From IMG/VR virus record IMGVR_UViG_3300025133_000106: a DNA stretch of 61,666 nucleotides. The stretch is one strand, 5' to 3'. The number at the start of each line of letters is the position of its first letter. Position 1 is the first letter of the stretch. The DNA is from a virus. Position numbers and translations under genes: made by a program. The notes under the pieces are model-generated. The model was not told the origin of the DNA. It worked only from the letters and a program-made list of their open reading frames with translations, and did no database searches. Shown here piece after piece: positions 1-52,883 of this stretch.

Positions 1-57
1 AAAACAAAGAATCCATTACTTGCATGGCCACACCGAGATAAACCACAAACAGTAAAA

Positions 58-624
58 TTGCTAGCAGACAGTGTGCTTGTATTCGATAGGTATTATATCA
101 GGAAAAATGCAGAAGAATTTGATTCAATCACATTCAGGCTCGTCTCTTACCCCGGTGAGCCTGTTGCTGATGTTAGATTCTGGGTATCTCTTTGTGACGT
201 TGATGGCCTCGAGGCTGTGAAGGTCACAGCAGTCCCAAAAAAAGGAGCAAAGACCCCTGCTGACAGAGCAGCATCAAAAATTGAGTGTGACATTCTGCGA
301 GCAGGCTTGATGCACTCCCATAAAGATAAATTCATCGACTGCGTAAATGAAATTAGGGTAGCTGATGAATGTATGCTTCAAAGAGCTGTGGGTGTCGTAC
401 CTCCTCGTTTTGAACTTGGTGCATTCTATGGGCCAAAATATAGGGATGGTCCTGATTTTGTAAGAAAAATAAAAATTGAGCTTAGTTTTGAAATAGAGGG
501 AAGTGAATGGTATCGCACTCGAAATAGACTCCAATGGCAATATCGTACGTACAAAGCTAAAGTTTATTTCGACGAAAAAACGTCAATTAAGTGTATGAAG
601 CTATCAGCTCGTCTTCCACAGTAA
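58..624 (+). CDS. hypothetical protein
   Basis: 188-aa ORF at window edge, same strand as neighbours; no recognisable motif. Confidence 0.4.
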   Translation: MLADSVLVFDRYYIRKNAEEFDSITFRLVSYPGEPVADVRFWVSLCDVDGLEAVKVTAVPKKGAKTPADRAASKIECDILRAGLMHSHKDKFIDCVNEIRVADECMLQRAVGVVPPRFELGAFYGPKYRDGPDFVRKIKIELSFEIEGSEWYRTRNRLQWQYRTYKAKVYFDEKTSIKCMKLSARLPQ

Positions 625-682
625 GAATAAATTTTATATAACTTATTGTAAACTGCATTCACATATGTGGTATAATATAAAT

Positions 683-1693
683 ATGAAAATTATGGTTTCT
701 GGAGGCGCAGGCTTCCTTGGTTCATGGCTAATTGAGGAACTATTGTCTTTAGGACATAGTGTAGTTAGTGTAGATAGTATGATAGGCGGGTATGATGATA
801 ATATCATACAAAATAGCAAGCATGAGTTTCATACGGGCGATGTAAGAGATTTAGAGCTAATGACGGAGCTGACTGCTGGATGTGATGTTATTTTCCACAC
901 AGCAGCGTTAGCATATGAAGGGCTGTCAGTTTTTAGTCCAGCATTAATTACTGACAACATCGTTACCGGGACTGTTACATTAGCGACAGCTGGGATAAAC
1001 TCAGGGGTAAAAAGGTTCATTAATTGCTCTTCGATGGCAAGATACGGTGCGAATAAAGTTCCATTTACTGAATCAATGCAGCCATCTCCTGAAGACCCTT
1101 ATGGCGTTGCGAAATATGCAGCTGAGATGCAGCTTGATCTGCTGGGTAGAATTCATGGCTTTGAAGTTGTCCATGCCATTCCCCATAATATTATTGGTCC
1201 ACGCCAAAAGTATGATGATCCCTTCAGAAATGTGGCATCCATAATGACTAATTTAATGCTTCAAGGGCGTCAGCCAATCGTTTACGGCGATGGAAACCAA
1301 AAAAGATGCTTTAGTTTTGTTAACGATGATTTGTTCGTTTTAACAAGGCTGATTGATTGTGATTTAAAAGTTCATGGTGAGAAGTTTAATATCGGCCCAG
1401 ACGAAGAGTTTGTTACTATTAATGAATTAGCCGATAGGATCGCCTCCATACTAGATTTTAAGCTTGATATCGAGTATCATAAAGCACGACCCTGTGAAGT
1501 TATGCTAGCAACATGCTCAGCAAACAAAATTAGAGAAAGGTTCGGATATGAAACAAAGACAACATTAAATGAGGGTTTAGAATCAATTGTTAACTATGTT
1601 AAGCAACGAGGCACACAAAAATTTAAATATCACTTGCCTATTGAGATTCATAATGCACAATTGCCACGAACGTGGAAAGAAAGGCTTTTCTGA
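683..1693 (+). CDS. NAD-dependent epimerase/dehydratase (extended SDR, nucleotide-sugar enzyme)
   Basis: N-terminal Rossmann GGAGFLGSWL; catalytic YxxxK as PYGVAKYAAE; length ~337 aa typical of GalE/RmlB family. Start placed at MKIMVSGG. Confidence 0.75.
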   Translation: MKIMVSGGAGFLGSWLIEELLSLGHSVVSVDSMIGGYDDNIIQNSKHEFHTGDVRDLELMTELTAGCDVIFHTAALAYEGLSVFSPALITDNIVTGTVTLATAGINSGVKRFINCSSMARYGANKVPFTESMQPSPEDPYGVAKYAAEMQLDLLGRIHGFEVVHAIPHNIIGPRQKYDDPFRNVASIMTNLMLQGRQPIVYGDGNQKRCFSFVNDDLFVLTRLIDCDLKVHGEKFNIGPDEEFVTINELADRIASILDFKLDIEYHKARPCEVMLATCSANKIRERFGYETKTTLNEGLESIVNYVKQRGTQKFKYHLPIEIHNAQLPRTWKERLF

Positions 1694-2070
1694 TGAACGC
1701 TTTAGATGATGCAGTTACTGCAATATCACATGAGCTCCTAAAATTAAGTAAACAGAGAAATGACGTAGACTATGAAGCGCTGCCTTTGGACAAACTTGAA
1801 GCCAGGATACATGATGTTCTCATGGGTTTATCAGGAGAAACGCTGAATATACTAAAACAGTCCACAATGAAATCAGGGCTTAAGCAATCACAGGATGAGG
1901 CTGAATGTTGTTCAACTTGTTTAATGCCTATTGCTGAGTGCCATCGCGAAGATGTCGCCGCACGATGGCACAAAGAAGATATGGATCTTTTTTGTAGTTG
2001 TTGTGGGCGCTTTTGGAAAGGCACGATTACTGAGCTGAGTCGTGCCAGAGAGTTTATGGATAATGAATAA
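1693..2070 (+). CDS. Cys-rich (zinc-ribbon-like) hypothetical protein
   Basis: CCSTC...C-H and CSCCGRFW cysteine clusters; ATGA overlap with upstream stop. Confidence 0.45.
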   Translation: MNALDDAVTAISHELLKLSKQRNDVDYEALPLDKLEARIHDVLMGLSGETLNILKQSTMKSGLKQSQDEAECCSTCLMPIAECHREDVAARWHKEDMDLFCSCCGRFWKGTITELSRAREFMDNE

Positions 2071-2578
2071 AATACTGTTAAGTGCAACACTTGGCGCCGC
2101 CCTTCTTTTAAGCCCGTTATATGCAGCATGTGAAAATTGTCATGTAATAGTCAATAAAGTAAGACTTAGCCAGCGACAGATTTCGTCATTAGAAAAACAG
2201 CTTAGTATGAAGCTCGCTTGTGGCGAAGTCTGGTATGATAGCATGACTGGTGCATGGGGCCACTCAGGAGGTCCAACGATAGGGTTCATTAGGCCTGGGC
2301 TTTCGTCTGCGCGCCTGCATAGAAATGCCTCCTCAGGAAATACTGGCGTAATAGTTAACAATAGAGAACTACACTGGCTTGATGTTGCGATACTTACTAG
2401 CCAGGGAATTCCAGTGCGAAAAGGTAGATATTGGCTTAATTATTTTGGCCAAGGGGGAAGGGTCGGCAGAGGTGTAGAGTTTACACTCCCGAAACCCAGG
2501 CAGATTAGGCGGAAGCCACCATCGTCACGCAAATCTGTATTTAGCTCGTATGATCTAACTGGGGTAAAAGTATTTTGA
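2063..2578 (+). CDS. secreted hypothetical protein (signal peptide)
   Basis: N-terminus MNKILLSATLGAALLLSPLYAA is a classic signal peptide. Confidence 0.5.
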   Translation: MNKILLSATLGAALLLSPLYAACENCHVIVNKVRLSQRQISSLEKQLSMKLACGEVWYDSMTGAWGHSGGPTIGFIRPGLSSARLHRNASSGNTGVIVNNRELHWLDVAILTSQGIPVRKGRYWLNYFGQGGRVGRGVEFTLPKPRQIRRKPPSSRKSVFSSYDLTGVKVF

Positions 2579-2979
2579 GTCAAATGAAAGTCGCCGTCGG
2601 CACGGCAATTGCAATTGTTAATAGCTCTGGACAAGTATTAATGCATAAGCGTAAAGGTTCACATGGGTCAAGTGAATGGGCCTTACCCGGCGGCTCAGTT
2701 GATCCTGACGAGTTTGCTTGTGCTGCAGCAATTCGTGAAGTATACGAAGAGACTGGGCTTATTGTTACAGATCTAAAGCGTGTAGGGATAAATTTACATT
2801 TTTTTGAAGAGATTCAAAAAGAGTATGTTACTATATACTACAGGTGTTATAATCGGGAAGGAATTCCAAGAGTCATGGAACCAGAAAAAGTCGATGGTGA
2901 ATGGGAGTGGATTACACCAGGTAATTGGCCATCACCCATTTTTGAGGACACAATTAGCATGATAGAAGGTAAACTATGA
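2575..2979 (+). CDS. Nudix hydrolase (MutT-like)
   Basis: Nudix box GGSVDPDEFACAAAIREVYEETGL (Gx5Ex7REUxEExGU). Confidence 0.7.
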   Translation: MSQMKVAVGTAIAIVNSSGQVLMHKRKGSHGSSEWALPGGSVDPDEFACAAAIREVYEETGLIVTDLKRVGINLHFFEEIQKEYVTIYYRCYNREGIPRVMEPEKVDGEWEWITPGNWPSPIFEDTISMIEGKL

Positions 2980-4085
2980 AAGTCGGATTTTCTTACCATG
3001 GCGTTTGGGATGCAATGCGTCCTGGTCACCAATTAGACACTCCTGATGGGCACCGATATGGTCGTAAGCTGTTCATGCAAGAAGTTGTTGATCAAGGTAA
3101 CATGTTATATTTGCTGCAACCAAGAAGAGAAGAAACGCACTTCGCTGGTGCTATTTATCCATTAGAAGGTTTCCCGAATGTGCACGTCCAGAAAAATGGA
3201 AATGAAGTTGCCATTAAGAAAGAATACTATCCTGACCTTGATGTCATCTTTATGGAGTGGAGATGGTCCACATACAAAAATGACAAAACTCACCCGAAGT
3301 ATGATCCCCTCAAGTATGAGGCCGATCTTGATAGACAGTGTGCCCTGCTAGCATACTATCATGATAAAATCCCCATTATCGTTTGGGATACAGACTTGAA
3401 GCTGACGGCAAAAGACGAAGAAAAGTGGCCAAATCTTATCATCGCTGACCCGTCATTTGAGACGAATCGTTTAACGCGGGATAGGGTCTCGCTACCATTC
3501 TGGACAGACTGGAAAGAAATGTTGCCTACTGCAGATCCATATCCGATATATGGATATATTGGAAATAATTACGAAAGAGACGATGAGTTTGAAAATTATT
3601 TCTTTAACTTAAAACAAAGTACACGGATAGCTGGCATTCAGACTGCGATGTATGGCAACTGGCTACAGTCATCACCCGAGCGCCCTCGGCCAACAGCATT
3701 AATATCAACACATCGAGAAGTTGCGTTTAATCATAGGATGAACTTCTTTGATTCTATGAAAATGTTAAATAAATTTATTTGTACTACACACATCTCGAAG
3801 CCCAGATATTATGAGGTGGGTTTTATGTCACCGAGATATTTAGAAGCACTTGCAGTAAACTGTCCCGCGATGGTTCCGCATACTTTTAAAGAAAGTAATT
3901 TACTTGGCGCACTGTGGACTGTGGAAAAAACATCTGACGTCATGGATAGAATCAGACTTCTTCGTAACATGTCACTTGCTAATAGGCAGGAAATTGTCGA
4001 AGAGCAACGGTATCACCTGCAAAGACAGCATGATTTTCATGTCGACTCTGTCGTTGAGTTTATAACTGAAGGTCATTCATTATGA
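2976..4085 (+). CDS. hypothetical protein embedded between the two epimerase genes
   Basis: 369-aa ORF with 4-nt overlaps on both sides; no motif recognised. Confidence 0.55.
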   Translation: MKVGFSYHGVWDAMRPGHQLDTPDGHRYGRKLFMQEVVDQGNMLYLLQPRREETHFAGAIYPLEGFPNVHVQKNGNEVAIKKEYYPDLDVIFMEWRWSTYKNDKTHPKYDPLKYEADLDRQCALLAYYHDKIPIIVWDTDLKLTAKDEEKWPNLIIADPSFETNRLTRDRVSLPFWTDWKEMLPTADPYPIYGYIGNNYERDDEFENYFFNLKQSTRIAGIQTAMYGNWLQSSPERPRPTALISTHREVAFNHRMNFFDSMKMLNKFICTTHISKPRYYEVGFMSPRYLEALAVNCPAMVPHTFKESNLLGALWTVEKTSDVMDRIRLLRNMSLANRQEIVEEQRYHLQRQHDFHVDSVVEFITEGHSL

Positions 4086-5074
4086 AAATAATCGTAACTG
4101 GGCATGCTGGGTTTATAGGATCACATTTATGTAGAGCCCTACTAGAGGCCGGGCACGAAGTTATTGGCATCGATAATTTTAACGATACTCTGGGTGGCAG
4201 AACTGCAGAACAAACACTGAACGAGAAACATATTCACCTTGGGCTTTCTGGGGTTGAGCGAGATAGAATGTCTCTTTATACAGCAGACATCAGAAACGAC
4301 GACATCAAAGAACTCTTCAGTGATGTAGATGTTGTTTATCATCTTGCTGCACAAGCAAGCTTGAGTAAGTCATTTGATTATCCGCTAGAATATCAAAGCG
4401 TGAATGTGGAAGGAACCAACAACATCCTTGAATTTTGTCGCGAAGCGTCGGTTAAGAGAGTTATTTTTGCTTCTGATGCGTCAGTACTGGGATCTGATAC
4501 AACATTTCCATCATTAAGACCACGCCCAGAAAGCGTATTCGCTATGACGAAGATGTCAGGTGAACTTTTAGGTCGTACTTACAACACAAATTTCGGAATA
4601 GAGTTTATTTCACTAAGACTCTTTAATGTGTATGGTCCCAGGTCGAGATGTGATATGGTCATGTCAAAGTTCATTGAGTCAGCTATCGAGCAAATACCTG
4701 TTAAGGGATTATGTTACGGTGGCTCTGTTCGTGATTATATCTACATCACTGACTGTGTCGATGCGCTAAGTGCAGCACTTGACATCAAACTACCAGTTTC
4801 TGGGTATGAATATATCGACGTCGGCACTGGAAAAAGCACAAAGTTATTTAATTTACGGTGTTGTATCGAAAAAAATGTGGGTAAAAATATCCTTCTTGAT
4901 GCAGGCGATCCAGATTATGGCTATCCGAAGGGCGTAATGTCATATAGCGTAGCAAATCCATTAAAGGCGGAGGAATTATTGGAGTGGAGACCTAAAGTCA
5001 CTTTAGACGTGGGTATAGCACGACAGGTCGCTTATATGAAATTAGCACAAATACTAAAGCTAAGTAACACATAG
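4082..5074 (+). CDS. NAD-dependent epimerase/dehydratase family protein (catalytic Tyr replaced by Phe)
   Basis: Rossmann GHAGFIGSHL; SDR-like layout, but the YxxxK position reads FAMTK. Confidence 0.65.
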   Translation: MKIIVTGHAGFIGSHLCRALLEAGHEVIGIDNFNDTLGGRTAEQTLNEKHIHLGLSGVERDRMSLYTADIRNDDIKELFSDVDVVYHLAAQASLSKSFDYPLEYQSVNVEGTNNILEFCREASVKRVIFASDASVLGSDTTFPSLRPRPESVFAMTKMSGELLGRTYNTNFGIEFISLRLFNVYGPRSRCDMVMSKFIESAIEQIPVKGLCYGGSVRDYIYITDCVDALSAALDIKLPVSGYEYIDVGTGKSTKLFNLRCCIEKNVGKNILLDAGDPDYGYPKGVMSYSVANPLKAEELLEWRPKVTLDVGIARQVAYMKLAQILKLSNT

Positions 5075-5106
5075 ATAACTTATTACATTATAGTGTATAA
5101 TTCTTT

Positions 5107-5637
5107 ATGCAGCGTATAATAATATTCGAAGGCCCAGATAGATGCGGTAAATCAAACATCGCACAAGAACTATCAAAAAGGCTGGATATTCCCTATTTTA
5201 AGAATAAGAGAGAGTCAAAGTTTTTTAAAGCTGATCCTGGTTATTTTGTGAAAGCATTAAAGTATGCTGATCCATATTTTATAAGCTACTTGCAGCAAAC
5301 AAAGGCATCAATAATCTTAGATCGCTCATTCCCATCTGAGTGGGTCTATAGCCAAGCATTTAATAGGGAAACAAACCTAGATATTCTACGCATGGTTGAT
5401 GGGCTCTATGCTGGAATCGGCGCAAAGATTATTATTCCCACTAGGAAAGACTACGCATTATGCAGTCCCGATCAATTCGAAGAAATTGATAAAGAAATGC
5501 TTGTCAAGCTTGATGGTTTATATACGGATTTTGAGTCCTGGACGTCATGTGAAACTAAAAGAATTAACGTCGACGATGAAGATCTAGAAAGAGAATTGAG
5601 CGAAATTATGCCATTTTTAGAAGGCAGCGAAGATTAA
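5107..5637 (+). CDS. deoxynucleoside monophosphate kinase (P-loop, thymidylate-kinase-like)
   Basis: Walker A IIFEGPDRCGKSN; size ~176 aa as in phage dNMP kinases. Confidence 0.6.
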   Translation: MQRIIIFEGPDRCGKSNIAQELSKRLDIPYFKNKRESKFFKADPGYFVKALKYADPYFISYLQQTKASIILDRSFPSEWVYSQAFNRETNLDILRMVDGLYAGIGAKIIIPTRKDYALCSPDQFEEIDKEMLVKLDGLYTDFESWTSCETKRINVDDEDLERELSEIMPFLEGSED

Positions 5638-6500
5638 TGAATAAAATAAAAGAAGAGAATTATCACAGCAAACCATTTAGAAAGATTTTCAAAGATCTTC
5701 ACAAGAACGGAAAATATTGTTCACCACGAGGCCAGAAGGTATTAGAAATAGAGAACTATTCTTATACACTTCCCCCATGGGTTAGGTTTCAAAACTTCGA
5801 GCACAGAAAGCTCAGCCTTAAGTATATTAAGACGGAACTGCAATGGTATTTAAAGGGCGATAAACGAGATTTAAGCATCATCGATAGTGCAAAAATTTGG
5901 GGTGACATCGTTAATGATGATGGTACAATTAATTCGAATTATGGGCAATACATTTTCGGGAAAACAAACCAGTTTGATAATGTTTTAAATTTACTTAAGA
6001 GTGATAGGGATTCAAGACGTGCAAGCATCGTCTTGTTAAATAAAAAGCATCTCTTTTCTGAAACTAAGGACGTTCCTTGTACATACTCAATGAACTTCAG
6101 GATTAGAGAAAACAAGCTGAATATGTCTGTTCATATGCGGAGTCAAGATGCTATTTTCGGAATGGGCAATGACGCTCCAACATTCAGCATAATCCATGAA
6201 ATGATGTTATGTGCACTGCATGAGTATTATCCAAGTTTAGAGTATGGTGATTATTTTCATATAGCAGATTCATTTCACGTCTACGAGCGTCATTTTGATA
6301 TGCTGCAAAAACTTACTGGAAAGAGGCTTATCGAAAGAGATACTAAGGAAAGGCCTTTGCATAGACACAAAAAATCTGTCTATGTGGTAGAAAATTGTCC
6401 AAAGATATCAGGTCCAAATGAGGTCAGGTTTTTAAGGAAACTTGATTTTTCTGTCATACCTGAGCCTTTTAAATTTACTAAATGGTTGGTAGAAAAATGA
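5637..6500 (+). CDS. thymidylate synthase-family pyrimidine hydroxymethylase (dCMP hydroxymethylase-like)
   Basis: ThyA-fold hallmarks: catalytic Cys in DVPCTYSMNF, HMRSQD..., C-terminal DSFHVYERH. Asp rather than Asn at the position aligned to TS Asn177 (GMGNDAPTF vs GLPFNIASY). Confidence 0.65.
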   Translation: MNKIKEENYHSKPFRKIFKDLHKNGKYCSPRGQKVLEIENYSYTLPPWVRFQNFEHRKLSLKYIKTELQWYLKGDKRDLSIIDSAKIWGDIVNDDGTINSNYGQYIFGKTNQFDNVLNLLKSDRDSRRASIVLLNKKHLFSETKDVPCTYSMNFRIRENKLNMSVHMRSQDAIFGMGNDAPTFSIIHEMMLCALHEYYPSLEYGDYFHIADSFHVYERHFDMLQKLTGKRLIERDTKERPLHRHKKSVYVVENCPKISGPNEVRFLRKLDFSVIPEPFKFTKWLVEK

Positions 6501-7330
6501 AGACAAGAGAGATTCAATTATTGTTGAATAAGCATGGCCACCGGCTACGCTTAGACGACCAAATGGGGCCTACGACAAAGTCAGCAGTTCGAGCCTTTCA
6601 AAGAAAGCACAAGCTTGTTGCTGATGGTATTGTTGGTTCATTAACTATTAGAGCATTACGTAAATCTCCGGCCAGTTCGAAGAAGCTAAAGTTCAAAAAA
6701 ATTGTATGCGACGATTTTGTTCTTGGCGGAATAGTATCTGGAGCAAATCAAACCTGGATAAGGGAAGATGCAGTTTCTTCATTAGCAAAAGTAAGAGACA
6801 CGATCCAGAGCGCAGGCGCGCTATTTACATCTCATGGCGGAAGGAGACTTCTAAGTGCATCAGTAGGCAAAAATAGAAGTAAAACGAGCCTTCATTATCT
6901 TGGTCTTGCTCATGATCTTCATACAAAATCAGGTATGGTTGATCCTTACAATGATCCTTATGTTGTTGTCCAGAGTCTCGAGGATCACCGGAGGTGGACT
7001 GTATACGCTAGGGTTGATTACCCTATAGGCACATATTTAGAGCTGGAGGCGTACACCTATGAACACAAAAAAATCTCCGTTGCAGGAAATTATATTAACA
7101 TCACTGAGCTTATGGCAGAAAATGGCTGGAAGAGTATCCGCGCAAGAAAGTCATTTTTCTCGAAAGGAAATACGCTGGCAGCAGAGTGGTGGCATTTCCA
7201 AAATGAAGATGTCTTAAAAAAGGGTGTAACTTTCGGCTCAGAATTGATAAAATCATATAAATTGAAAAAATTAAAATCATATCCGTTATGGAAACGTAAT
7301 GGTGTCAAGTGGCAAAAGAATTGGTTTTAG
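6497..7330 (+). CDS. endolysin: PG-binding domain + peptidase M15 (VanY-like)
   Basis: PG_binding_1-like QMGPTTKSAVRAFQRKHKLVADGIVGSLT; M15 motifs SLHYLGLAHDLH and AEWWHFQ; ATGA overlap with upstream gene. Confidence 0.7.
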   Translation: MKTREIQLLLNKHGHRLRLDDQMGPTTKSAVRAFQRKHKLVADGIVGSLTIRALRKSPASSKKLKFKKIVCDDFVLGGIVSGANQTWIREDAVSSLAKVRDTIQSAGALFTSHGGRRLLSASVGKNRSKTSLHYLGLAHDLHTKSGMVDPYNDPYVVVQSLEDHRRWTVYARVDYPIGTYLELEAYTYEHKKISVAGNYINITELMAENGWKSIRARKSFFSKGNTLAAEWWHFQNEDVLKKGVTFGSELIKSYKLKKLKSYPLWKRNGVKWQKNWF

Positions 7331-7891
7331 ATGAAGACAAAAGAGCTTATAAAGCAACTTCAAGAAGCAGACCCATCAGGTGAGCTAGATTGTAACTGTA
7401 ATGGGGCAGATATATACTTCGTTCAACATGAGTACGGCTATTATGACGGCCCATATGAGCGTTTAAAAAGAGATGACTCCAAAGCATGTTACAACGTTAC
7501 TGGAGCTGAAATCACTACCGCCGGAGAAAAAGTTATAATTCATACGTTGTCTATTGAAGATGCATTGTGTAATGATACTGAGCTACCTGTTACTGTCACA
7601 CATTATAATAGAGATAGAATGGCTGAGTATCTTGACACAGTCGAAAAGTGGCGGCAAGAGGCTCGCGATAGTTATCGCAGAGTGAATATGATGTGCTTTG
7701 CGCAATTCGTTAAAAAAGAGTTTGGTCTTGAGCGTGAGATTGCAGATGCATTCTATGCAAGGAATATACACTATAAGGACGAGATTGATGCCGATATTAA
7801 AGCTACTAAATCAAGCCCTTGGCAAAAAAATCATGAAATGTGGAAGCGTAACATTACAGCAGTCAATGGCTTGTTAAAGAAGGTAGGCTAA
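7331..7891 (+). CDS. hypothetical protein
   Basis: 186-aa ORF, tight spacing. Confidence 0.5.
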   Translation: MKTKELIKQLQEADPSGELDCNCNGADIYFVQHEYGYYDGPYERLKRDDSKACYNVTGAEITTAGEKVIIHTLSIEDALCNDTELPVTVTHYNRDRMAEYLDTVEKWRQEARDSYRRVNMMCFAQFVKKEFGLEREIADAFYARNIHYKDEIDADIKATKSSPWQKNHEMWKRNITAVNGLLKKVG

Positions 7892-7892
7892 T

Positions 7893-8831
7893 ATGGACCC
7901 TAAATCTGTCAACTGCGTTATTTATCATGGAAATTGTTCTGATGGTTTTGGCGCAGCATGGGCAGCATGGAAAGTCCTTGGCAATAAGGCTGAATATCAT
8001 GCAGCCTTTCATGGAAAAGCGCCACCTGACGTGACTGGTAAGCGTGTCGTCGTTCTTGATTTTGCATATGACAAAAAAATAACAAAACATTTAATTGCGA
8101 CTGCCGAAGATTTCGAAATGAGAGATCACCACAAGTCAGCAATGATGATGCTAGATGGAATAGCTAAACCAGACTGGTTTCAGTTGGGCAACAGCGGAGC
8201 AATTTTAGCATGGGAATATTTTCATCGAGGGATACCTGCGCCAAGGTTTCTGCAGTTCATAGAAAACAGAGATATGGGCTGGAAACCCTATATGGAATAC
8301 TCAAAAGAATTCTCGACAGCCTTTGATATGATCCCGCTAGAATTTCCAGCGTATGACAGAATGATGAATGCATCTGTTGTAGATGATTGTATTAGAAAGG
8401 GTTCACACATTTTACCTTACGCAGATGCTGCTATTGATAAAGTATGCTCAAAGGCAGTTAAGCGTAAGCTGCAAGAGCATTGTGTTCTTGTTGTTAACTC
8501 GACTCAGTGGATATCTGAGGTCGGCATGAGATTAGCGCCTGATTGCGATTATGCAATAGTGTGGTATTGGGATCATAATGAGAAATATGCGAAAGTTAGC
8601 TTACGATCTTTCCACGATCATATTGACTGCGGTTCGATCGCTAAGCGATTCGGAGGCGGAGGGCATGCGGAGATCGCAGGCTTTGAATACTCAGGAAACA
8701 TCGAAGACTTGTTTAAAAAGCAAATTAAAACCCTCCGAATTGAAACTAAGGATTCAGGAGCACAGCAACTTACCGGCTCGTCCGAGTTGGGATATGATCT
8801 GGATGTCGACAGCTCGTCTTTTGGCAAGTAG
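7893..8831 (+). CDS. DHH-family phosphoesterase (NrnA/RecJ-like core)
   Basis: Motifs HGNCSDGFG (I), VVVLDF (II), RDHH (III), GGGGHAE (IV). Confidence 0.7.
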   Translation: MDPKSVNCVIYHGNCSDGFGAAWAAWKVLGNKAEYHAAFHGKAPPDVTGKRVVVLDFAYDKKITKHLIATAEDFEMRDHHKSAMMMLDGIAKPDWFQLGNSGAILAWEYFHRGIPAPRFLQFIENRDMGWKPYMEYSKEFSTAFDMIPLEFPAYDRMMNASVVDDCIRKGSHILPYADAAIDKVCSKAVKRKLQEHCVLVVNSTQWISEVGMRLAPDCDYAIVWYWDHNEKYAKVSLRSFHDHIDCGSIAKRFGGGGHAEIAGFEYSGNIEDLFKKQIKTLRIETKDSGAQQLTGSSELGYDLDVDSSSFGK

Positions 8832-9189
8832 ATCAATTGATCCAAGAACAAAGGTTGGGTGTGTTATCGTTACTGGCGATAATTCACAAGTCTTAGCAGT
8901 TGGATACAATGGTGATCAGAAGGGCGGAACAAACATGGTCGAATCTGATGAACCTGGCAAGAGCGGCACAATACACGCTGAGGAGAATGCACTAATCAAA
9001 TGCGATTTTTCTAGTCATAAAGAGAAGATTATGTATCTTACAGTCAGTCCATGTGATCAATGTGCAAAGAAAATTATAAATGCAGAGATTGATGAAGTTG
9101 TTTATGATGTCGAATACAGAATTACGGATGGTATTGATAGACTAGAGGCTGCTGGTATCTTTGTAAGAAAGTTTAAAACAAATGAATAG
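8794..9189 (+). CDS. dCMP deaminase (cytidine/deoxycytidylate deaminase fold)
   Basis: Zinc motifs HAEENA and SPCDQCAKKI; start moved to internal ATG 8794 to avoid a long overlap with the DHH gene. Confidence 0.7.
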   Translation: MIWMSTARLLASRSIDPRTKVGCVIVTGDNSQVLAVGYNGDQKGGTNMVESDEPGKSGTIHAEENALIKCDFSSHKEKIMYLTVSPCDQCAKKIINAEIDEVVYDVEYRITDGIDRLEAAGIFVRKFKTNE

Positions 9190-9448
9190 ATACTTTATCA
9201 CGCAAGAAAACTTCTTTAAAAATAAGTTTTCGCAATTGTGCGAAGGCGACATGATTTTGCGTAGAGATCTTATAATAGATTGGCCTAAAAACGTCGCAAC
9301 AGAAGTGTTAATTGTTGCAAAGAGGTTACCTTCGACGGTGGCAGCAGTACAATTATTACCCTTGACCGGGATTTTTTTAATGAATGCTTTACCCTACGTG
9401 AGGACGAGGGAGTCTCGTATCAAGGAGACTTTATTATTGTACAAATGA
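9182..9448 (+). CDS. hypothetical small protein
   Basis: 88-aa ORF only. Confidence 0.3.
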   Translation: MNRYFITQENFFKNKFSQLCEGDMILRRDLIIDWPKNVATEVLIVAKRLPSTVAAVQLLPLTGIFLMNALPYVRTRESRIKETLLLYK

Positions 9449-9481
9449 ATAAAAAAGAGAGGGGATTATATATAATAGATA

Positions 9482-11272
9482 ATGCAATATGATTCTCCCA
9501 TAGCATTCTTTTTAGGTAAAGATGCTGATAAGCAAACACACAAAAGAATTAGAGATAAAGGCTTCAAAATTGTAGAGGGCACTTACGATGTCTTGGTTTA
9601 TCACCCTCTTCACTGGACAGTTAAATCACAAAATTCACTTGAAGAATCAATCAATGATAGAAGGTTTCTACCTCCCCATGGGCTACTTGAAGTGGGTGTT
9701 GATTTTCCCTATAGTCACGCAATAATTCCTGAAAGTGTGGAAGCGAAATTATTGCTTCGTTATTTATTTGGTTTATCTGAGGGCCAAACATACAGTGATT
9801 TGTTTAAAACACAAAATATCACCGAAGCAAAAGGCACAACAAGAAGAAGCTTCTTAAAGTCCATGGCTGCAGCCATGGGCACTGCAGCGACAGCAAATCC
9901 AGCAAAATTGGCAGGTGTAGCTAAGACTGCGATGACGCCTGCGGCAACAACGATAACAAGTCCAGGCGCTAGGGCTCTTTCATTCTTTGTAGCAAATGAA
10001 CTTGGTTATGCTTGGTCGAAAGCTGAGGTGTACAATCGCTGGGCCAAAATGAAAAAGCACATTGGTGTATTGGATCCTAAGATGAGAAAAGCAGAGGTTG
10101 CTAAACTGGAAAATGCTCTAAATGACACTATGAAGAGTTTTCCTGAAGGTGGTATTGAGGGATTACATAGTGATGAAGTGTTGGATGCCTTCGATGCCAA
10201 TATGGAGTTATTCGACAATTTATCAGGCTTTGGCACCCCTGCGTGGACTGATCAGGCGGCAAAAATATCTGATGACGCAAATCGGGAATGGTACAAAGAA
10301 GAATTTCCAGAAGATTTTGAAAAAGAAACTGAGCGTAATGATCAACAAGCTGATAAAGCTACCGACAATCATCACAGCACAGATCCAGGTGACGAAGACA
10401 TCACAGACACACCCTGGAGTGCGACAAGAATGGGCGACAGAAAGCAATGGAAAGGTGAAGATGATTTCATTGATGAAGCCAAGGGCACGACAAGAAGAAG
10501 CTTCTTGAAAAGTATGGCTGCAGCCATGGGCACTGCAGCGACAGCAAATCCAGCAAAATTGGCAGGTGTAGCAAAGGCAGCAATGAAACCAGCTTCGGTT
10601 GCTATAACAAGCCCAGGTGCTAAAGCACTTGCGTCGACAATCGCAGGAGAGCTTATATATGCTGCTTCAAAAGCTGCCTTATATGATCGCTTCAAAAAAT
10701 CAAAAGAAATTGCTTTTAAGCTTGACCCTACGATGAAAAAAGCAGAGATTTCTAAATTAGAGAATATTCTCGCTGATGCTACAAAAGACTTCGCCAACGG
10801 CCCAAATGGCATGAATTACGGTAGCATGAGTGATACAGCAGCAGACGCTCTTGAGTTGAAATCTGCAGCATTCGAAAAATTAGCAGGTCACGGAACCGGT
10901 GGATGGGATGAAGCAACAAGACAAATAAGCAGTGATGTTGACCATACATGGCATCGAGCTGAGTTTCCTGAATTATATAAGGACGTTCCTGAGGAATTAC
11001 GGCCTGTGGAGGATGATGAGTATGATGATAGTTTCCAACCACCAGATGATGACAATTATATATCCAACGTAGACCCAGGTGACGAAGACCTCATTAGCAC
11101 TCCCTGGAGTGCAACAAGAATGGGCGACAGAAAGCAATGGAAAGGTGAAGATGATTTCATTGATGAAGCAAAACAGTTCAGGATTGCGATCCCGTCTGTT
11201 CGTCATTTAAAGAAGGCATGGCCAAATGATAGAAAGGGCTGGACATCAGAGATTGATAAGGTATTAAAATGA
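9482..11272 (+). CDS. repeat protein with two internal Tat-signal-like modules
   Basis: Two ~217-aa tandem modules, each starting GTTRRSFLKSMAAAMGTAATANPAKLAGVAK and ending TPWSATRMGDRKQWKGEDDFIDEAK. Confidence 0.6.
   Translation: MQYDSPIAFFLGKDADKQTHKRIRDKGFKIVEGTYDVLVYHPLHWTVKSQNSLEESINDRRFLPPHGLLEVGVDFPYSHAIIPESVEAKLLLRYLFGLSEGQTYSDLFKTQNITEAKGTTRRSFLKSMAAAMGTAATANPAKLAGVAKTAMTPAATTITSPGARALSFFVANELGYAWSKAEVYNRWAKMKKHIGVLDPKMRKAEVAKLENALNDTMKSFPEGGIEGLHSDEVLDAFDANMELFDNLSGFGTPAWTDQAAKISDDANREWYKEEFPEDFEKETERNDQQADKATDNHHSTDPGDEDITDTPWSATRMGDRKQWKGEDDFIDEAKGTTRRSFLKSMAAAMGTAATANPAKLAGVAKAAMKPASVAITSPGAKALASTIAGELIYAASKAALYDRFKKSKEIAFKLDPTMKKAEISKLENILADATKDFANGPNGMNYGSMSDTAADALELKSAAFEKLAGHGTGGWDEATRQISSDVDHTWHRAEFPELYKDVPEELRPVEDDEYDDSFQPPDDDNYISNVDPGDEDLISTPWSATRMGDRKQWKGEDDFIDEAKQFRIAIPSVRHLKKAWPNDRKGWTSEIDKVLK
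9824..11172 (+). repeat. intragenic tandem duplication (~651-bp unit x2)
   Basis: Near-identical DNA at ~9824 and ~10475 (gaagc(a/c)aa(a/g)ggcac(a/g)acaagaagaagcttctt...ggctgcagccatgggcactgcagcgacagcaaatccagcaaaattggcaggtgtagc). Confidence 0.85.
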
Positions 11273-12195: not shown

Positions 12196-12876
12196 ATGGT
12201 AACAAGAAAAGATATATTAGCAGGCATTAAAAAAGACCTAAAGATTGATAAGCCTTTAAGTGAATCGTATGTCGCGTCAGAAAAGTCATATGATCTAAAT
12301 ACAGAGTTGCTAAGCGCAAAAACTAAGCAGACGCATATTAAGTTATATAAAGAGCGGATACAGGCTTTAAATGAAGTTAGTGCTGAACTTGACACTGCTG
12401 ATAGAGAAGCTGCCAACCATAACATGTCTGAGTTTCGAACGTTAAAAGCACTAGAAATGAGACATAGAAATTCTGTTATGCTGCATGAAATGTATTTCTC
12501 TAACATAAGTGACATTAGAAGTGAAATTTCATACGATTCAATCACATACATGAAGCTGGCAGCTAGTTTCGGCACATTCGATGATTGGCAGTGGGACTTT
12601 ATGGCATGCGCTGCCTCAGCAGACGAAGGTTGGGCAGTAACAGTTTATGATACATTTCTTAGGAGATACATCAATGTTATGATTGATGGTGATAGTAAAC
12701 ATATTCCCGTAGGGTGCTTTCCGATCGTAGTATTAGATGTTTGGGCACATTCATATTACAAAGACTATCTCGACAACAAGAACGGTTATATAGAGAACAT
12801 GATGCGTGAATTAAGGTGGGATGTTATTGAAGAGCGCGTCCAACGCGCTGAAATGATAGCACAGGTAGTTAAATAA
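12196..12876 (+). CDS. Fe/Mn superoxide dismutase-like protein
   Basis: C-terminal DVWAHSYY (SOD signature DVWEHAYY) and LHEMYFSNI resembling NHSLFWKNL; overall two-domain layout. Confidence 0.5.
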   Translation: MVTRKDILAGIKKDLKIDKPLSESYVASEKSYDLNTELLSAKTKQTHIKLYKERIQALNEVSAELDTADREAANHNMSEFRTLKALEMRHRNSVMLHEMYFSNISDIRSEISYDSITYMKLAASFGTFDDWQWDFMACAASADEGWAVTVYDTFLRRYINVMIDGDSKHIPVGCFPIVVLDVWAHSYYKDYLDNKNGYIENMMRELRWDVIEERVQRAEMIAQVVK

Positions 12877-32234: not shown

Positions 32235-33902
<1,668 letters not shown>

Positions 33903-33915
33903 ATACTTAATAAGT

Positions 33916-34581
33916 ATGAACCTTTTAGAAGCGTTTAAAACAAAGAGCGCAGGCATTGTACTTATTAAGTTTTTGAAAAACAAGCCTCATGTGCTATGCT
34001 TAAAAACGCACGATGGAAGGTGGGACTTACCCAAGGGGAAAATTGACCCTGGAGAAGATGCATTTGGTGCAGCAGCCCGAGAAACACAAGAAGAAGCTGG
34101 CATTTCTAATGTAAAATTTCCGTGGGGTATGATAAGTCATAATGGCACAAAGACTATATTGTTCATTGGTGTTACTATACAGCCTGCAAAAATATCAAAG
34201 AATCCACATACAAAGAAATACGAGCACGCTTCTTCAAAGTGGATTTCTATTTCTTCGGCTAAGAATATTGCGATTCCACACCTACGACCTGGATTAGCTT
34301 GGGCTGAGTCTGTTATTACTACTAGTTCTGCAGCACAGAAACAACGGCGACGTCATGGTTTACGAGAATCAGTTAGCAAAGCGGTCAATATGACTGCTGC
34401 TTATGCCAATGATCTTAAATTAGCTCTTAATTGGTTAACACTTAATAATGCTGCAACATTTAGTGATGAAGTAACAAAAAAGGGCGATAGCTACTTGTCT
34501 GTGATTCATCCTCTTATTGAAAAGGGCGAATTGGAGCTATTAATAAAAGACCGATTCGGCTCTTTTGTGCATATAAATTAA
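33916..34581 (+). CDS. Nudix hydrolase
   Basis: Nudix box GKIDPGEDAFGAAARETQEEAGIS. Confidence 0.65.
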   Translation: MNLLEAFKTKSAGIVLIKFLKNKPHVLCLKTHDGRWDLPKGKIDPGEDAFGAAARETQEEAGISNVKFPWGMISHNGTKTILFIGVTIQPAKISKNPHTKKYEHASSKWISISSAKNIAIPHLRPGLAWAESVITTSSAAQKQRRRHGLRESVSKAVNMTAAYANDLKLALNWLTLNNAATFSDEVTKKGDSYLSVIHPLIEKGELELLIKDRFGSFVHIN

Positions 34582-39115: not shown

Positions 39116-39967
39116 GTGGCTAAACAAGATAGTGGTGGCGTAGGATTTTATCTTAAACAGATTGGTAAAAGACCTTTGCTTACAAAAGAACAAGAAATTA
39201 TTCTTTCTCAAAAAATTGAGGGCTTTGAGGATGTTAAATATACAAGAGAGCCTGATGGCGAAATAAGAATAGAATCTTCAAAAGCAATTAGCAAAAGTGA
39301 GAAATCAAGAGCTAAGAATAAGATGATAGAATCTAACTTACGCTTAGTTGTCTCGATAGCAAAAAGGTTCCAAAATAGAGGCTGCAGTCTTGATGACTTA
39401 ATCGCAGCAGGCAATATTGGTTTAATCAGAGCTACTGAGTTATTTGATTGGAGAAAAGGGTTTAGATTCTCAACATATGCAACTTGGTGGATTCGCCAAA
39501 ATATCGGGCGCGAAGTTGCATCACAAAGTAAGCAGATAAAGACCTCTGGTAGGGTTACTGACGTTTACGTTCGAATACAATTGGCACGTGATGAATTCAT
39601 TGAACTGCATGCACAAGAACCTACCTGCGCCGAGCTTGCATCGATAATAGGGGTGACTGAAACGACAGTCCAATCAGCAATTTCAGGTATTCCTTTGCTG
39701 GTATCTATTGATAAGCCCATTGGCTCAGATGGCGCTGACTCAAGAACATTAAAAGATGTAATAGAAGACGTCGACTCAGAATCCCCACTTGATTTAATTA
39801 ATAAAAAAGAACTTACTGCTCTCTTATCTGGGGTTTTAAACTCACTAAACCCTAGAGAAGAAAAGATACTTAGAATGAGATTTGGTTTAACGGAAAATCC
39901 AAAAGATCATAAAAAGTTTCCAATCTCCTCTAAAGAGTTAGAGAAGATGAAGGCTTCATGTGCTTAA
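39116..39967 (+). CDS. sigma-70 family RNA polymerase sigma factor (apparently lacking region 4.2)
   Basis: Region 2 NLRLVVSIAKRF...DLIAAGNIGLIRATELFD...FSTYATWWIRQNI; region 3/4.1 up to ILRMRFGL, then the ORF stops. Confidence 0.75.
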   Translation: MAKQDSGGVGFYLKQIGKRPLLTKEQEIILSQKIEGFEDVKYTREPDGEIRIESSKAISKSEKSRAKNKMIESNLRLVVSIAKRFQNRGCSLDDLIAAGNIGLIRATELFDWRKGFRFSTYATWWIRQNIGREVASQSKQIKTSGRVTDVYVRIQLARDEFIELHAQEPTCAELASIIGVTETTVQSAISGIPLLVSIDKPIGSDGADSRTLKDVIEDVDSESPLDLINKKELTALLSGVLNSLNPREEKILRMRFGLTENPKDHKKFPISSKELEKMKASCA

Positions 39968-52409: not shown

Positions 52410-52883
52410 ATGAAAAACTATAGGAAGATGCAGGAAGCAATGGACACTGCACATACTCGTTGGTCAAGCGGTGATTTAAAAGGCAAGCCATACACTGATT
52501 TTATTGGTGCATTACCCATACCTGATCAGTATGTAGTGTCTATTGGGCATATGAATTACCAAGTTACTAATGGCGGGTGGGCACAGTGGATAGACAATAG
52601 ATACCATCTAAGGGCAGATGTACTTAAATCTGGTTTAGCTATAGTTAATACTGCAGCATCAAAAAGAGCCCTCTCTATCCTTTGCTCTGTTTTGTCAAAG
52701 TATCAAAAACATCAAAATAATAGATTTTATGGACAGTTTGTTAACTGGACATGCGATGATTGTGGCGATTATGATGCTATGGTTGACAGTATCGAACCTG
52801 AGTGTGACGAGTATTATGCCATAAATCTTGAACTCCTTGATGACGTAGAAGCATTTCTTTTGCAGGTGCCGAATGCGTCATAA
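52410..52883 (+). CDS. hypothetical protein
   Basis: 157-aa ORF. Confidence 0.45.
   Translation: MKNYRKMQEAMDTAHTRWSSGDLKGKPYTDFIGALPIPDQYVVSIGHMNYQVTNGGWAQWIDNRYHLRADVLKSGLAIVNTAASKRALSILCSVLSKYQKHQNNRFYGQFVNWTCDDCGDYDAMVDSIEPECDEYYAINLELLDDVEAFLLQVPNAS

Follow-up and report, generated by a model that had tools for sequence, protein, structure and literature searches.

A predicted folate-dependent dCMP 5-hydroxymethylase of the ThyA superfamily linked to kinase, glycosyltransferase and sugar-epimerase genes in a jumbo phage

Genes at the locus

The gene examined here occupies positions 5637-6500 of the window, by which we mean the whole stretch of viral DNA that was analysed (61,666 nucleotides). 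The source is a jumbo phage, roughly 300 kb in size (about 309 kb), that has a polymerase of the Pol III alpha type. The gene, its key codons and its neighbours are as follows.

665-1693, + strand: second NAD-dependent SDR, UDP-hexose 4-epimerase-like, 342 aa (PF01370, 6e-41)
2575-2979, + strand: NUDIX hydrolase, 134 aa (PF00293, 2e-18)
2976-4085, + strand: GT-B fold glycosyltransferase, 369 aa, candidate DNA (5hmC) glycosyltransferase
4082-5074, + strand: NAD-dependent SDR, nucleotide-sugar 4-epimerase-like, 330 aa (PF01370, 3.5e-50; PHROG 540, 1e-64)
5107-5637, + strand: P-loop nucleotide kinase, Tmk/YorR-like, 176 aa (PHROG 761 'thymidylate kinase', 8e-12)
5637-6500, + strand: predicted folate-dependent dCMP 5-hydroxymethylase, ThyA superfamily, 287 aa (PF00303 and active-site residues)
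6069-6071, 6078-6080, 6147-6149 and 6171-6173, within the 5637-6500 ORF: key codons for D145, C148, D171 and D179 (the last GAC)
about 6318-6497, + strand, within the 5637-6500 ORF: family-specific C-terminal extension, ~60 aa
7893-8831, + strand: DHH/DHHA1 phosphoesterase, 312 aa (PF02272, 1e-6; PHROG 4771, 9e-55)
8794-9189, + strand: dCMP deaminase, about 131 aa from Met 8794 (PF00383, 1e-21; PHROG 174, 1e-43)

The stop codon of the NUDIX gene overlaps the start of the glycosyltransferase gene, whose own stop overlaps the start of the SDR gene at 4082-5074, and the kinase stop and hydroxymethylase start overlap in the sequence TAATG. These overlapping stop and start codons suggest co-expression. 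A promoter and terminator scan of positions 1-9600 gave counts of 32 and 9, with shuffle expectations of 26.6 ± 5.4 and 6.6 ± 2.7, respectively; because these counts lie within expectation, no operon boundaries were drawn.

The initial annotation of this DNA had cited a neighbouring dCMP deaminase and dNMP kinase as context. Both genes are real. The deaminase lies three genes downstream of 5637-6500; the longest ORF there reaches back to 8578, overlapping the gene before it, and the gene called on the contig is 8794-9189. The kinase, however, is Tmk/YorR-like and not a dNMP kinase of the T4 gp1 type: it showed a weak match to TIGR00041, its best PDB match was YorR (2axp/3kb2, 6e-4), and it is 34% identical to RB69 gp45 over 90 aa. 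YorR is also the top structural match for DLP3 gp78 (PMC13326640, Table 1). The context argument was right in spirit, and the stronger context consists of the kinase together with the GT-B glycosyltransferase and the epimerases, which the annotation had left out.

No Pfam family matched the glycosyltransferase above threshold, and the T4 alpha- and beta-glucosyltransferases were its third and fourth best structural matches among 48,164 structures. The best PDB matches of the SDR at 4082-5074 were 6zlj/6zl6 ('Epimerase domain-containing protein', 4e-47), which we take to be the B. cereus UDP-glucuronate 4-epimerase, followed by UDP-glucose 4-epimerases and MoeE5, and those of the SDR at 665-1693 were 4zrm, a UDP-glucose 4-epimerase (1e-41), and 6wjb (4e-40). 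Both SDRs scored below cut-off for GalE and all other NCBIfam equivalogs, and their PDB neighbours are a mixture of UDP-glucose, UDP-GlcNAc and UDP-GlcA 4-epimerases.

The NUDIX hydrolase may act as a pyrophosphatase on (d)CTP, on NDP-sugars or on ADP-ribose, and it looks more like the ADP-ribose or MutT type. All NCBIfam models were below cut-off for this protein, the best being of NadM-Nudix and MutT type, and a NadM-Nudix protein of Ralstonia jumbo phage RsoM2USA matches it at 48% identity over 60 aa. A role as a gp56-like dCTPase finds no support, given these best models and the lack of conservation of the gene with its neighbours in related loci. No convincing dCTPase was found in the window, where neither NUDIX protein (2575-2979 and 33916-34581) matched a dCTPase model above cut-off. 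Likewise, tblastn and a ThyX motif search detected no second ThyA or ThyX in this 61.7-kb window of the 308.6-kb contig.

Fold, placement of Asp179 and active-site residues

The initial annotation had proposed a ThyA-family enzyme at 5637-6500, and this is borne out by the ORF and its match to PF00303 (Thymidylat_synt; E = 3e-24). The AF2 model of the protein has a pLDDT of 93.8. Foldseek with this model returned the CMP hydroxymethylase MilA first, then E. coli thymidylate synthase (TS) and T4 dCMP hydroxymethylase (dCH), with E-values within two orders of magnitude, so that hydroxymethylases and TS are not told apart by Foldseek alone. In a phmmer search of PDB chains, the best match was T4 dCH (1b49, 3.5e-19, 72 bits); E. 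coli TS scored 48 bits and the 5-hydroxy-dCMP synthase 9iqu scored 37 bits.

The annotation had further claimed Asp at the position equivalent to Asn177, as in T4 dCMP hydroxymethylase, and had proposed aligning the protein with E. coli ThyA and T4 gp42 as a check. Three independent alignments agree with it, placing Asp179 opposite E. coli ThyA Asn177 and T4 gp42 Asp179. In the phmmer search, the query segment MRSQDAIFGMGND pairs with MRSNDVVFGFRND of T4 dCMP hydroxymethylase, which contains Asp179, and with RSADVFLGVPFN of a bacterial TS. In the MAFFT alignment, which comprised the query, E. coli ThyA (a reference sequence identical to PDB 1aob), T2 gp42, RB69 gp48, SPO1 gp29 and Xp12, the query D179 shares a column with E. 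coli N177. The nucleophile is also in place, since Cys148, unchanged across the family, falls opposite E. coli C146 and T4 C148. Asp in the 177 column was invariant in 120/120 metagenomic homologues, as was the signature, D179 was invariant in a further alignment as well, and the motif D/E143-C146-T/S147-D169-G173-D177 was present in 76 of the 80 relatives on IMG/VR viral contigs. Because of this invariance, D179 is attributable neither to chance nor to a sequencing error.

These data bear on whether the gene encodes an enzyme for uracil nucleotides, either an ordinary TS or a dUMP hydroxymethylase, a reading that we regard as extremely improbable. Homologues are labelled thymidylate synthase in databases and in the RsoM2USA paper, and in BLAST the dUMP hydroxymethylase SPO1 gp29 scores about equal to T4 gp42. 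However, SPO1 gp29 keeps N177 where the query and every other family member have Asp, and the query also has Thr for His147 and Asp for Leu143. The canonical ThyA C-terminal tail is not homologous in the query, and the NCBIfam TS equivalog models gave 21-75 bits against cut-offs of 108-427 (the best 75.5 against 327). In T4 dCH, the D179N substitution abolishes both activity and dCMP binding (PMC6400193).

Asp at position 177 indicates only a cytosine substrate, and it is also found in flavin-dependent 5-hydroxy-dCMP synthases such as RB69 gp48 (PMC13326640). The MAFFT alignment shows Asp at this position in the Xp12 dCMP methyltransferase as well. The initial annotation had taken the Asn/Asp switch as the mark of a cytosine-type hydroxymethylase; the cytosine substrate stands, but the case for a hydroxymethyl product draws in addition on D145, the T4-specific INSNYG motif, Asp171, Trp88, Gly175 and Phe174, and the S169/R127 pair. 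Since Asp177 is common to enzymes with hydroxymethyl, methyl and hydroxy products, we checked the other published discriminators. These are the L143D/E and D169N changes, whose roles are given along with that of N177D in PMC13326640, the water-network residues D145/S94/Y96 of T4 dCH (PMC6400193), and the deoxyribose determinants Ser167 and Arg126, in place of which MilA has Ala176 and Lys133 (PMC5175136).

At the position of E. coli Leu143 the query has D145, the water-activating residue of hydroxymethylases, and its S100 and Y102, which match T4 S94 and Y96, lie within an INSNYG motif identical to that of T4 gp42. On the folate side it keeps Asp171 (E. coli D169), Trp88 (W80), Gly175 (G173) and E67 (E58), together with Y63, I87 and F174 (T4 Y56, I81 and F174), and the nucleotide pocket is of the deoxyribose type, with S169 (Ser167) and R127 (Arg126). 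In E. coli numbering, the residues are E58, W80, Y94, R126, R127, D143, C146, T147, R166, S167, D169, G173, D177, H207 and Y209. Nineteen of the 26 active-site or THF-site residues of T4 dCH (list from PMC6400193) are identical in the query, including the D145/S94/Y96 triad and the PABA-pocket residues Y56, I81, W82 and F174 (T4 numbering), and in the MAFFT alignment the query equals T2/T4 gp42 at all of the discriminating positions 143, 147, 169, 173 and 177. The query and T4/T2 gp42 (1b49, 6a9a) share the fold and C148, D179, D145, T149, D171, S169, R168, E60, W82, Y96, S94, F174, H216, Y218 and R220, whereas the conserved 60-aa C-terminal extension is found only in the query family. The protein combines sequence and fold features of a dCMP hydroxymethylase (EC 2.1.2.8): the TS fold with its Cys, Asp177, an acidic residue 143 with the water network, the folate residues and the deoxyribose pocket.

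The gene might instead encode an enzyme like RB69 gp48, DLP3 gp80 or HY126, the flavin-dependent synthases of 5-hydroxy-dCMP, in which case the glycosyltransferase would sugar 5-hydroxycytosine directly. The 5hoC clusters of RB69, DLP3 and RL38JI are close in content, with a Tmk-like kinase, a GT-B glycosyltransferase and a ThyA homologue (PMC13326640, Table 1); the kinases are homologous, that of the window being a detectable homologue of RB69 gp45. The ThyA homologues of these clusters likewise have the ThyA fold, dCMP as substrate, Asp177, Thr147 and an acidic residue at 143, and the query shares Gln at 168 with RB69 gp48. The diagnostic D169N change, however, is absent, as Asp171 is invariant in the family while the tested 5hodCMP synthases all have Asn (PMC13326640). 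RB69 gp48 and PDB 9iqc read 'MRSQN', unlike the query; W80, G173 and Y209, kept in both the query and T4 gp42, are Ala, Val and Phe in RB69 gp48; and 9iqu scored below T4 dCH in phmmer. The arabinosyl-5hoC clusters (RB69 gp48, DLP3 gp80, HY126; 9iqc; PMC13326640) also contain an arabinose-5-P isomerase, a kinase-uridylyltransferase and a phosphatase, whereas SDR epimerases are found here. We consider a 5-hydroxy-dCMP synthase very unlikely.

A dCMP methyltransferase of the Xanthomonas phage Xp12 type, which would give DNA with 5-methylcytosine, seems a shade less probable again. The sole ThyA homologue of Xp12 has Asp177 in common with the query, and TS N177D mutants methylate dCMP (cited in PMC8670742). 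At position 143, however, the query has Asp, Xp12 Asn and TS Leu, and at position 147 the query has Thr and Xp12 Pro; the 143/147 rule is weakly founded against methyltransferases because the comparison had a single dCMP methyltransferase reference, Xp12 (Asn143). The Ser94/Tyr96/Asp145 water network of T4 dCH is present in the query, the TS-like C-terminal tail kept by Xp12 is absent, and no DHFR gene adjoins it, in contrast to Xp12. In addition, the glycosyltransferases and carbamoyltransferases linked to the family require a hydroxyl acceptor.

The residue pattern thus points to 5637-6500 as a folate-dependent deoxycytidylate 5-hydroxymethyltransferase, the functional counterpart of T4 gp42, with a probability that we put at roughly 0.78. 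Because the query is only ~32% identical to T4 gp42 and its family is a clade of its own, a small number of residues carries the functional reading, and the rules that an acidic residue 143 denotes hydroxymethylation and D169N hydroxylation are empirical and founded on few characterised enzymes. The proposal of the initial annotation that the product is hm-dC or a derivative, rather than dTMP, is supported by both the residue pattern and the gene context.

Conservation of the family and recurrence of its gene linkage

At least 900 metagenomic proteins make up the clade. A dCMP deaminase homologue adjoins the ThyA homologue in 51 of the 84 loci examined, and this co-occurrence has already been reported for cytosine-modified contigs (PMC8670742). 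In the branch of the family at 35-50% identity, which includes Xp15 and Acinetobacter phage HHU4, a carbamoyltransferase lies ~2.5 kb away (22/84 loci), and one representative carbamoyltransferase of that class is specific for 5hmC (PMC8670742). The predicted dCMP hydroxymethylases of these 5-carbamoyloxymethyl-cytosine clusters (MetaGPA, PMC8670742; Xp15, HHU4) belong to the family at 39-41% identity and have D143/C146/T147/D169/D177, the C-terminal extension and an adjacent dCMP deaminase. Their clusters are carried by phages of ~40-60 kb and contain the carbamoyltransferase, whereas the locus described here has the kinase, the GT-B glycosyltransferase and the sugar epimerases.

Megablast of positions 1-25000 of the window against 50,697 phage records gave no match, which indicates a phage without a close sequenced relative. 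The closest cultured orthologue is ORF10 of RsoM2USA (AVH84939.1), which is 59.6% identical over 98% of the length, has an identical signature and lies two genes from a dCMP deaminase, although it is labelled as a hypothetical protein or putative thymidylate synthase. Like T4, RsoM2USA encodes a Td-type TS separate from ORF10, together with a DHFR and an NTP-PPase, and this separate TS also speaks against reading the query as a thymidylate synthase. The kinase, glycosyltransferase and epimerase are absent from the flanks of ORF10, so the DNA of RsoM2USA may carry unglycosylated or differently modified 5hmC.

The linkage seen in the window recurs in other phages. Homologues of the kinase (40-58% identity) lie beside ThyA or glycosyltransferase genes in six related loci (L008, L010, L012 and L096-L098), an orthologue of the SDR at 665-1693 is present in L012 (71% identity), and the DHH/DHHA1 phosphoesterase is syntenic with the module, adjoining the ThyA homologue in L010, L012, L096 and L098. 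In distant jumbo-phage contigs, a kinase with 50-56% identity to that of the window and a glycosyltransferase with about 45% are linked to an SDR and to a ThyA homologue that has Asp143, Asp169 and Asp177 but is only 34-38% identical to the query.

The hydroxymethylase assignment could be right while the glycosyltransferase and epimerases remodel the host surface polysaccharide, leaving the DNA with plain or otherwise derivatised 5hmC. Clusters of glycosyltransferase and NDP-sugar genes in jumbo phages have also been interpreted in this way (PMC7824862), and we regard this division of roles as possible, if doubtful. What speaks against it is that the glycosyltransferase family has the kinase and a ThyA homologue with Asp177 as neighbours in 5/5 contexts examined, even where that homologue is of a different subfamily, that both T4 DNA glucosyltransferases are among its four best structural matches, and that the overlapping stop and start codons point to co-expression. 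In other relatives (L010, L022) the gene next to the kinase encodes another kind of transferase, which belongs to the PF03214 RGP family. When the window glycosyltransferase was compared by hhalign with the proteins at the equivalent place in L008 (425 aa, without a Pfam family) and L010 (PF03214 RGP), the probability was 0.1%, and these proteins are therefore non-homologous replacements.

Proposed pathway and its implications

If the enzyme follows the T4 mechanism, Cys148 would attack C6 of dCMP, Asp179 would recognise and protonate the N3/N4 edge of the cytosine, and 5,10-methylene-THF would be activated by Glu67 and Asp171. Departure of THF would then allow a water bound by Asp145, Ser100 and Tyr102 to add to the exocyclic methylene. 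The product, we infer, would be 5hm-dCMP, with THF regenerated and not oxidised. The Tmk/YorR-like kinase would then probably convert 5hm-dCMP to the diphosphate, so that 5hm-dCTP enters the phage DNA, and the GT-B glycosyltransferase at 2976-4085 would probably place a sugar on the hydroxymethyl group, the donor being tailored by the two 4-epimerase-like SDRs (665-1693 and 4082-5074). As in T4, the dUMP needed for dTMP would come from the dCMP deaminase (8794-9189).

This arrangement follows the genomic logic of T4/T2 gp42, in which a dCMP deaminase, a nucleotide kinase and a GT-B glycosyltransferase also take part. The partner kinase is gp1-like in T4 and Tmk/YorR-like here, T4 uses UDP-glucose of the host whereas two NDP-sugar epimerases are linked here, and the present phage differs from T4 in its jumbo size (about 309 kb) and in its polymerase, which is of the Pol III alpha type. 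We slightly favour glycosylation of the hydroxymethylcytosine. A wider proposal, which we put forward only tentatively, is that a widespread group of environmental jumbo phages with a Pol III alpha-type polymerase, whose members here derive from metagenomes that include Tara Oceans and JGI samples, replace cytosine with an undescribed glycosyl-5hmC. This would carry a non-glucose sugar made by the phage 4-epimerases (a galacto-hexose or hexuronic acid, for example) and attached by a new Pfam-less GT-B family of ~340-390 aa, and the conserved Tmk/YorR-like kinase would serve specifically for 5hm-dCMP, without homology to T4 gp1.

Synthesis of 5-hydroxymethyl-dCMP is a well-known route of phage DNA modification, and the Asn-to-Asp signature is textbook knowledge. 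Because this signature has already been applied to metagenomes (PMC8670742), the core finding is a correct re-annotation, not a discovery. Taken together, positions 143, 169 and 177 offer a worked example of how 5hm, 5ho and 5m chemistry can be separated. The set of kinase, glycosyltransferase, epimerase and hydroxymethylase is a cloneable candidate pathway for a new glycosyl-hmC, and the candidate DNA glycosyltransferase family and hm-dCMP kinase are possible epigenetic and biotechnology reagents. Hundreds of family members, called thymidylate synthase where they are named at all, are better read as cytosine hydroxymethylases. Such a reading would imply fully C-modified genomes across a large group of jumbo phages, and C-modified genomes withstand restriction enzymes, some library preparations and Cas nucleases.

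Identity of the aspartate at the Asn177 position

The window has about 40% GC, with genes mostly on the plus strand, and belongs to a 308,593-bp metagenomic contig (ENA ERZ27249009); shorter copies occur in one JGI and one SRA sample. No nucleotide-level relative was found among 50,697 phage records. The 287-aa product of the ORF at 5637-6500 (+), hereafter the query, matches Pfam PF00303 Thymidylat_synt (E = 3e-24) and PHROG 160/5131 'thymidylate synthase'. The NCBI thymidylate synthase (TS) equivalog models gave only 21-75 bits, against cut-offs of 108-427. Neither a second ThyA nor a ThyX was detected within the window.

When all PDB chains were searched with phmmer, the top match was T4 dCMP hydroxymethylase 1b49 (E = 3.5e-19, 72 bits), followed by the bacterial TS 6auj (61 bits), the CMP hydroxymethylase MilA (58) and E. 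coli TS (48). The initial annotation had proposed that this ORF carries Asp where TS has Asn177. In the phmmer alignments, MRSQDAIFGMGND of the query lies on MRSNDVVFGFRND of T4 and on RSADVFLGVPFN of TS, so that the Asp of 'GMGND' falls on T4 Asp179 and TS Asn177. A MAFFT alignment with E. coli ThyA (identical to PDB 1aob), T2 gp42, RB69 gp48, SPO1 gp29, the Xp12 enzyme, Xp15, HHU4 and RsoM2USA placed it in the identical column, bearing out the proposal. The codon is GAC (6171-6173). The residue is invariant across the best 120 of 899 database proteins (E ≤ 1e-10), and 76 of 80 IMG/VR relatives have the full motif. The Asp is neither a chance nor an error feature.

About a dozen close homologues (P0002, P0006, P0012, P0018, P0024, P0070 and others) are 413-470 aa long instead of ~270, and several contain a NUMOD3 motif (PF07460). 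This suggests homing-endonuclease fusions or insertions in the ThyA family, resembling the endonuclease-interrupted gp42 genes of some Klebsiella T4-like phages. Residues 228-287 of the query (window 6318-6497) form a conserved C-terminal extension, modelled at high confidence (consensus CPxISGPDEVxFLRxLDFxxIPxxFxFTxWL), which the Xp15/HHU4 branch shares but T4 gp42, RB69 gp48 and E. coli TS lack.

Residues that discriminate the chemistry

Asp177 by itself is insufficient to assign the chemistry, because ThyA homologues with this residue include a third kind of enzyme, the flavin- and O2-dependent 5-hydroxy-dCMP synthases RB69 gp48, DLP3 gp80 and RL38JI gp216 (PMC13326640, 2026); RB69 was formerly presumed to make hmC (PMC13326640). 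In E. coli numbering, N177D marks a cytosine substrate, L143D/E water access and hence a hydroxymethyl rather than methyl product, and D169N 5-hydroxylation (PMC13326640 and its references).

Residues at positions 143, 146, 147, 169, 173, 177 and 80 (E. coli ThyA numbering), in that order
Query: D, C, T, D, G, D, W
T2/T4 gp42: D, C, T, D, G, D, W
RB69 gp48: E, C, T, N, V, D, A
Xp12 (5-methyl-dCMP): N, C, P, D, G, D, W
SPO1 gp29 (5hm-dUMP): D, C, N, D, G, N, M
E. coli TS: L, C, H, D, G, N, W

The query equals gp42 at all of these positions. A 5-hydroxy-dCMP synthase would fit the cluster architecture, but the query lacks D169N and keeps W80, G173 and Y209, which makes this reading very unlikely. 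The solved synthase (PDB 9iqc/9iqu), near-identical to RB69 gp48, reads 'MRSQN' and scored only 37 bits against the query in phmmer.

Among the 26 active-site residues named for the T4 dCMP hydroxymethylase (dCH)-dCMP-THF ternary complex (PMC6400193), 19 are identical in the query. In T4 numbering these are Y56, E60, I81, W82 and F174 (PABA pocket and activation of the cofactor); S94, Y96 and D145, whose water network is proposed to bring about hydration of the exocyclic methylene (PMC6400193); R123, R124, R168 and S169, which bind phosphate and sugar; and C148, T149, D171, D179, H216, Y218 and R220. The motif 'INSNYG' is common to the query and T4 gp42, and its residues differ in E. coli TS, Xp12 and RB69 gp48. 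Ser169 and Arg127 of the query are of the deoxyribose type; in MilA, which prefers CMP, the equivalent positions hold Ala and Lys (PMC5175136). A dCMP methyltransferase would share Asp177, but D143, T147 and the water network of the query, together with linked partners that require a hydroxyl, render it highly improbable in a comparison with one reference enzyme. Asp177 together with the low NCBIfam scores rules out an assignment as TS or dUMP hydroxymethylase, whose likelihood is close to negligible.

AlphaFold2, run on 48 sequences of the family, gave a confident model (pLDDT 93.8), whose best Foldseek PDB matches were MilA, then E. coli TS and T4 dCH. This modelled structure confirms the predicted fold, which alone does not discriminate the chemistry. 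The analysis thus shows an enzyme of TS fold that has the full set of residues of a T4-type dCMP hydroxymethylase, and a large family conserves this set. The agreement with gp42 at the discriminating positions and the sub-threshold TS models support the earlier proposal, and a cytosine-directed hydroxymethylase is the likely reading rather than dTMP synthesis.

Genes around the enzyme

Genes surrounding the query in the window
665-1693: SDR, 4-epimerase-like
1672-2578: two ORFs without assigned product
2575-2979: NUDIX hydrolase
2976-4085: 369-aa protein, weak Glyco_trans_1_2 match (GT-B glycosyltransferase)
4082-5074: second SDR epimerase
5107-5637: P-loop kinase
5637-6500 (+): ThyA homologue (query)
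6482-7330: endolysin
7331-7891: ORF without assigned product
7893-8831: DHH phosphoesterase
8794-9189: dCMP deaminase

The nucleotide kinase and dCMP deaminase that the initial annotation had listed as neighbours are thus both present. Stop and start codons overlap at 2979/2976, 4085/4082 and 5637/5637 (TAATG). The kinase is Tmk/YorR-like and a homologue of RB69 gp45, an uncharacterised 'nucleotide kinase' of 5hoC clusters (PMC13326640). Both SDRs score below all curated cut-offs; their nearest matches are 4-epimerases of UDP-hexose, of UDP-GlcNAc and possibly of UDP-GlcA.

The endolysin gene (PG_binding_1 domain) begins 19 nt within the 3' end of the query gene (6482-6500), so that a lysis gene is embedded in the nucleotide-metabolism block; the related contig L012 has a lysozyme at the same position. 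Further downstream, 9482-11272 (+) encodes a 596-aa protein of two near-identical halves. Both contain the twin-arginine-like signal motif TRRSFLKSMAAAMGTAATANPAKLAGVAK as well as a C-terminal block that is repeated (DPGDEDI/LxxTPWSATRMGDRKQWKGEDDFIDEAK); the Pfam matches were weak TAT_signal ones only. The protein at 12196-12876 (+) has the Fe/Mn superoxide dismutase C-terminal domain alone (PF02777); every related jumbo contig examined (L008, L009, L012, L097, L098) conserves it in synteny, downstream of the block with ThyA and the deaminase. Unusually for a phage, an 858-aa protein (43835-46411, +) has vault repeat domains along with a Major Vault Protein shoulder (PF11978, 4e-19). Four entries (32241-33902, 39116-39967, 40944-43682 and 35583-37448) jointly cover a phage GroEL/Cpn60 chaperonin, a sigma-70-family factor complete from region 1.2 to region 4, a MoxR-type AAA ATPase with a DUF2201 metallopeptidase/VWA protein after it, and a 621-aa protein that combines VWA with six MopE copper-binding motifs. 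At 52410-52883 and 59531-60454 lie a DMP19-like protein (PF14300, 6e-7), of a DNA-mimic protein family, and a DUF7277/DUF7275 protein (5e-60).

Conservation of the module and the proposed pathway

The closest cultured relative of the query is ORF10 of the Ralstonia jumbo phage RsoM2USA (59.6% identity), 'hypothetical' in its database record and a putative TS in the phage paper. RsoM2USA also encodes a Td-type TS, DHFR and NTP-PPase and, like T4, has two ThyA paralogues. Its gp9 (L001 12819-13043), between the ThyA homologue and dCMP deaminase, matches the Acb2/Tad1 hairpin domain (PF24729, 2e-15), of an anti-CBASS/anti-Thoeris sponge family; NAMPT and NadM-Nudix genes lie upstream.

In related jumbo contigs, the kinase, a transferase, an SDR, the Asp177 ThyA, dCMP deaminase and DHH protein are grouped. 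The occupant of the transferase slot varies: L010 and L022 have a PF03214 RGP-family protein there, L008-type contigs a 425-aa protein without assignment, and both are non-homologous to the glycosyltransferase of the window. A distant-context search seeded with glycosyltransferase homologues at ~45% identity yielded three more jumbo contigs (L096-L098) with, in order, kinase, glycosyltransferase, SDR, ThyA, (SDR), TK, (DHH) and dCMP deaminase; the module adjoins a Pol III alpha gene. Their ThyA homologue (L096 9051-10052, L097 11740-12738, L098 8034-9026) belongs to a 330-aa subfamily that keeps D143, C146, T147, D169 and D177. It is only 34-38% identical to the query, whereas the kinase and glycosyltransferase on its flanks share 45-56% identity with those of the window (kinase 50-56%); either the ThyA gene was replaced while the module was conserved, or it diverged much faster. 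The kinase/glycosyltransferase linkage survives in either case and therefore argues for the kinase-glycosyltransferase-SDR-ThyA module as a functional unit. In the smaller-phage branch, which is 35-50% identical and includes Xp15, Acinetobacter HHU4 and numerous viral contigs of 40-60 kb, the enzyme is directly upstream of dCMP deaminase in 51/84 loci, and a carbamoyltransferase is nearby in 22/84; a carbamoyltransferase of this cluster type acts specifically on 5hmC (PMC8670742). The family is repeatedly linked to a kinase and hydroxyl-using transferases.

We propose that the query would convert dCMP and CH2-THF to 5hm-dCMP, which the kinase, whose gene overlaps the query start, would carry towards the triphosphate. 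The polymerase would then build the modified nucleotide into DNA, where the GT-B enzyme may glycosylate the hydroxymethyl group with a donor that the two 4-epimerase-like SDRs would tailor; dCMP deaminase would feed dTMP synthesis. Glycosyltransferase and sugar-gene clusters of jumbo phages have elsewhere been interpreted as surface-polysaccharide systems (PMC7824862). That the present sugar genes serve such a system, making the glycosylation layer wrong, is in our judgement less likely than not.

Specialised TS-superfamily enzymes for 5hmC were noted earlier in some jumbo phages by Iyer et al., and position 177 has been applied at metagenome scale by MetaGPA (PMC8670742). The core finding is therefore a known kind of enzyme, correctly recognised, which is mis-annotated in the lineage of the query. 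Two features are less ordinary: the kinase, glycosyltransferase, epimerase and hydroxymethylase genes show conserved linkage, and the GT-B family lacks an assignment. We put at roughly one in three the probability that these jumbo phages replace cytosine with an undescribed non-glucose glycosyl-5hmC, using phage 4-epimerases, a new GT-B family and a dedicated 5hm-dCMP kinase. The conserved linkage and the GT-B family make such an uncharacterised glycosyl-hmC testable.
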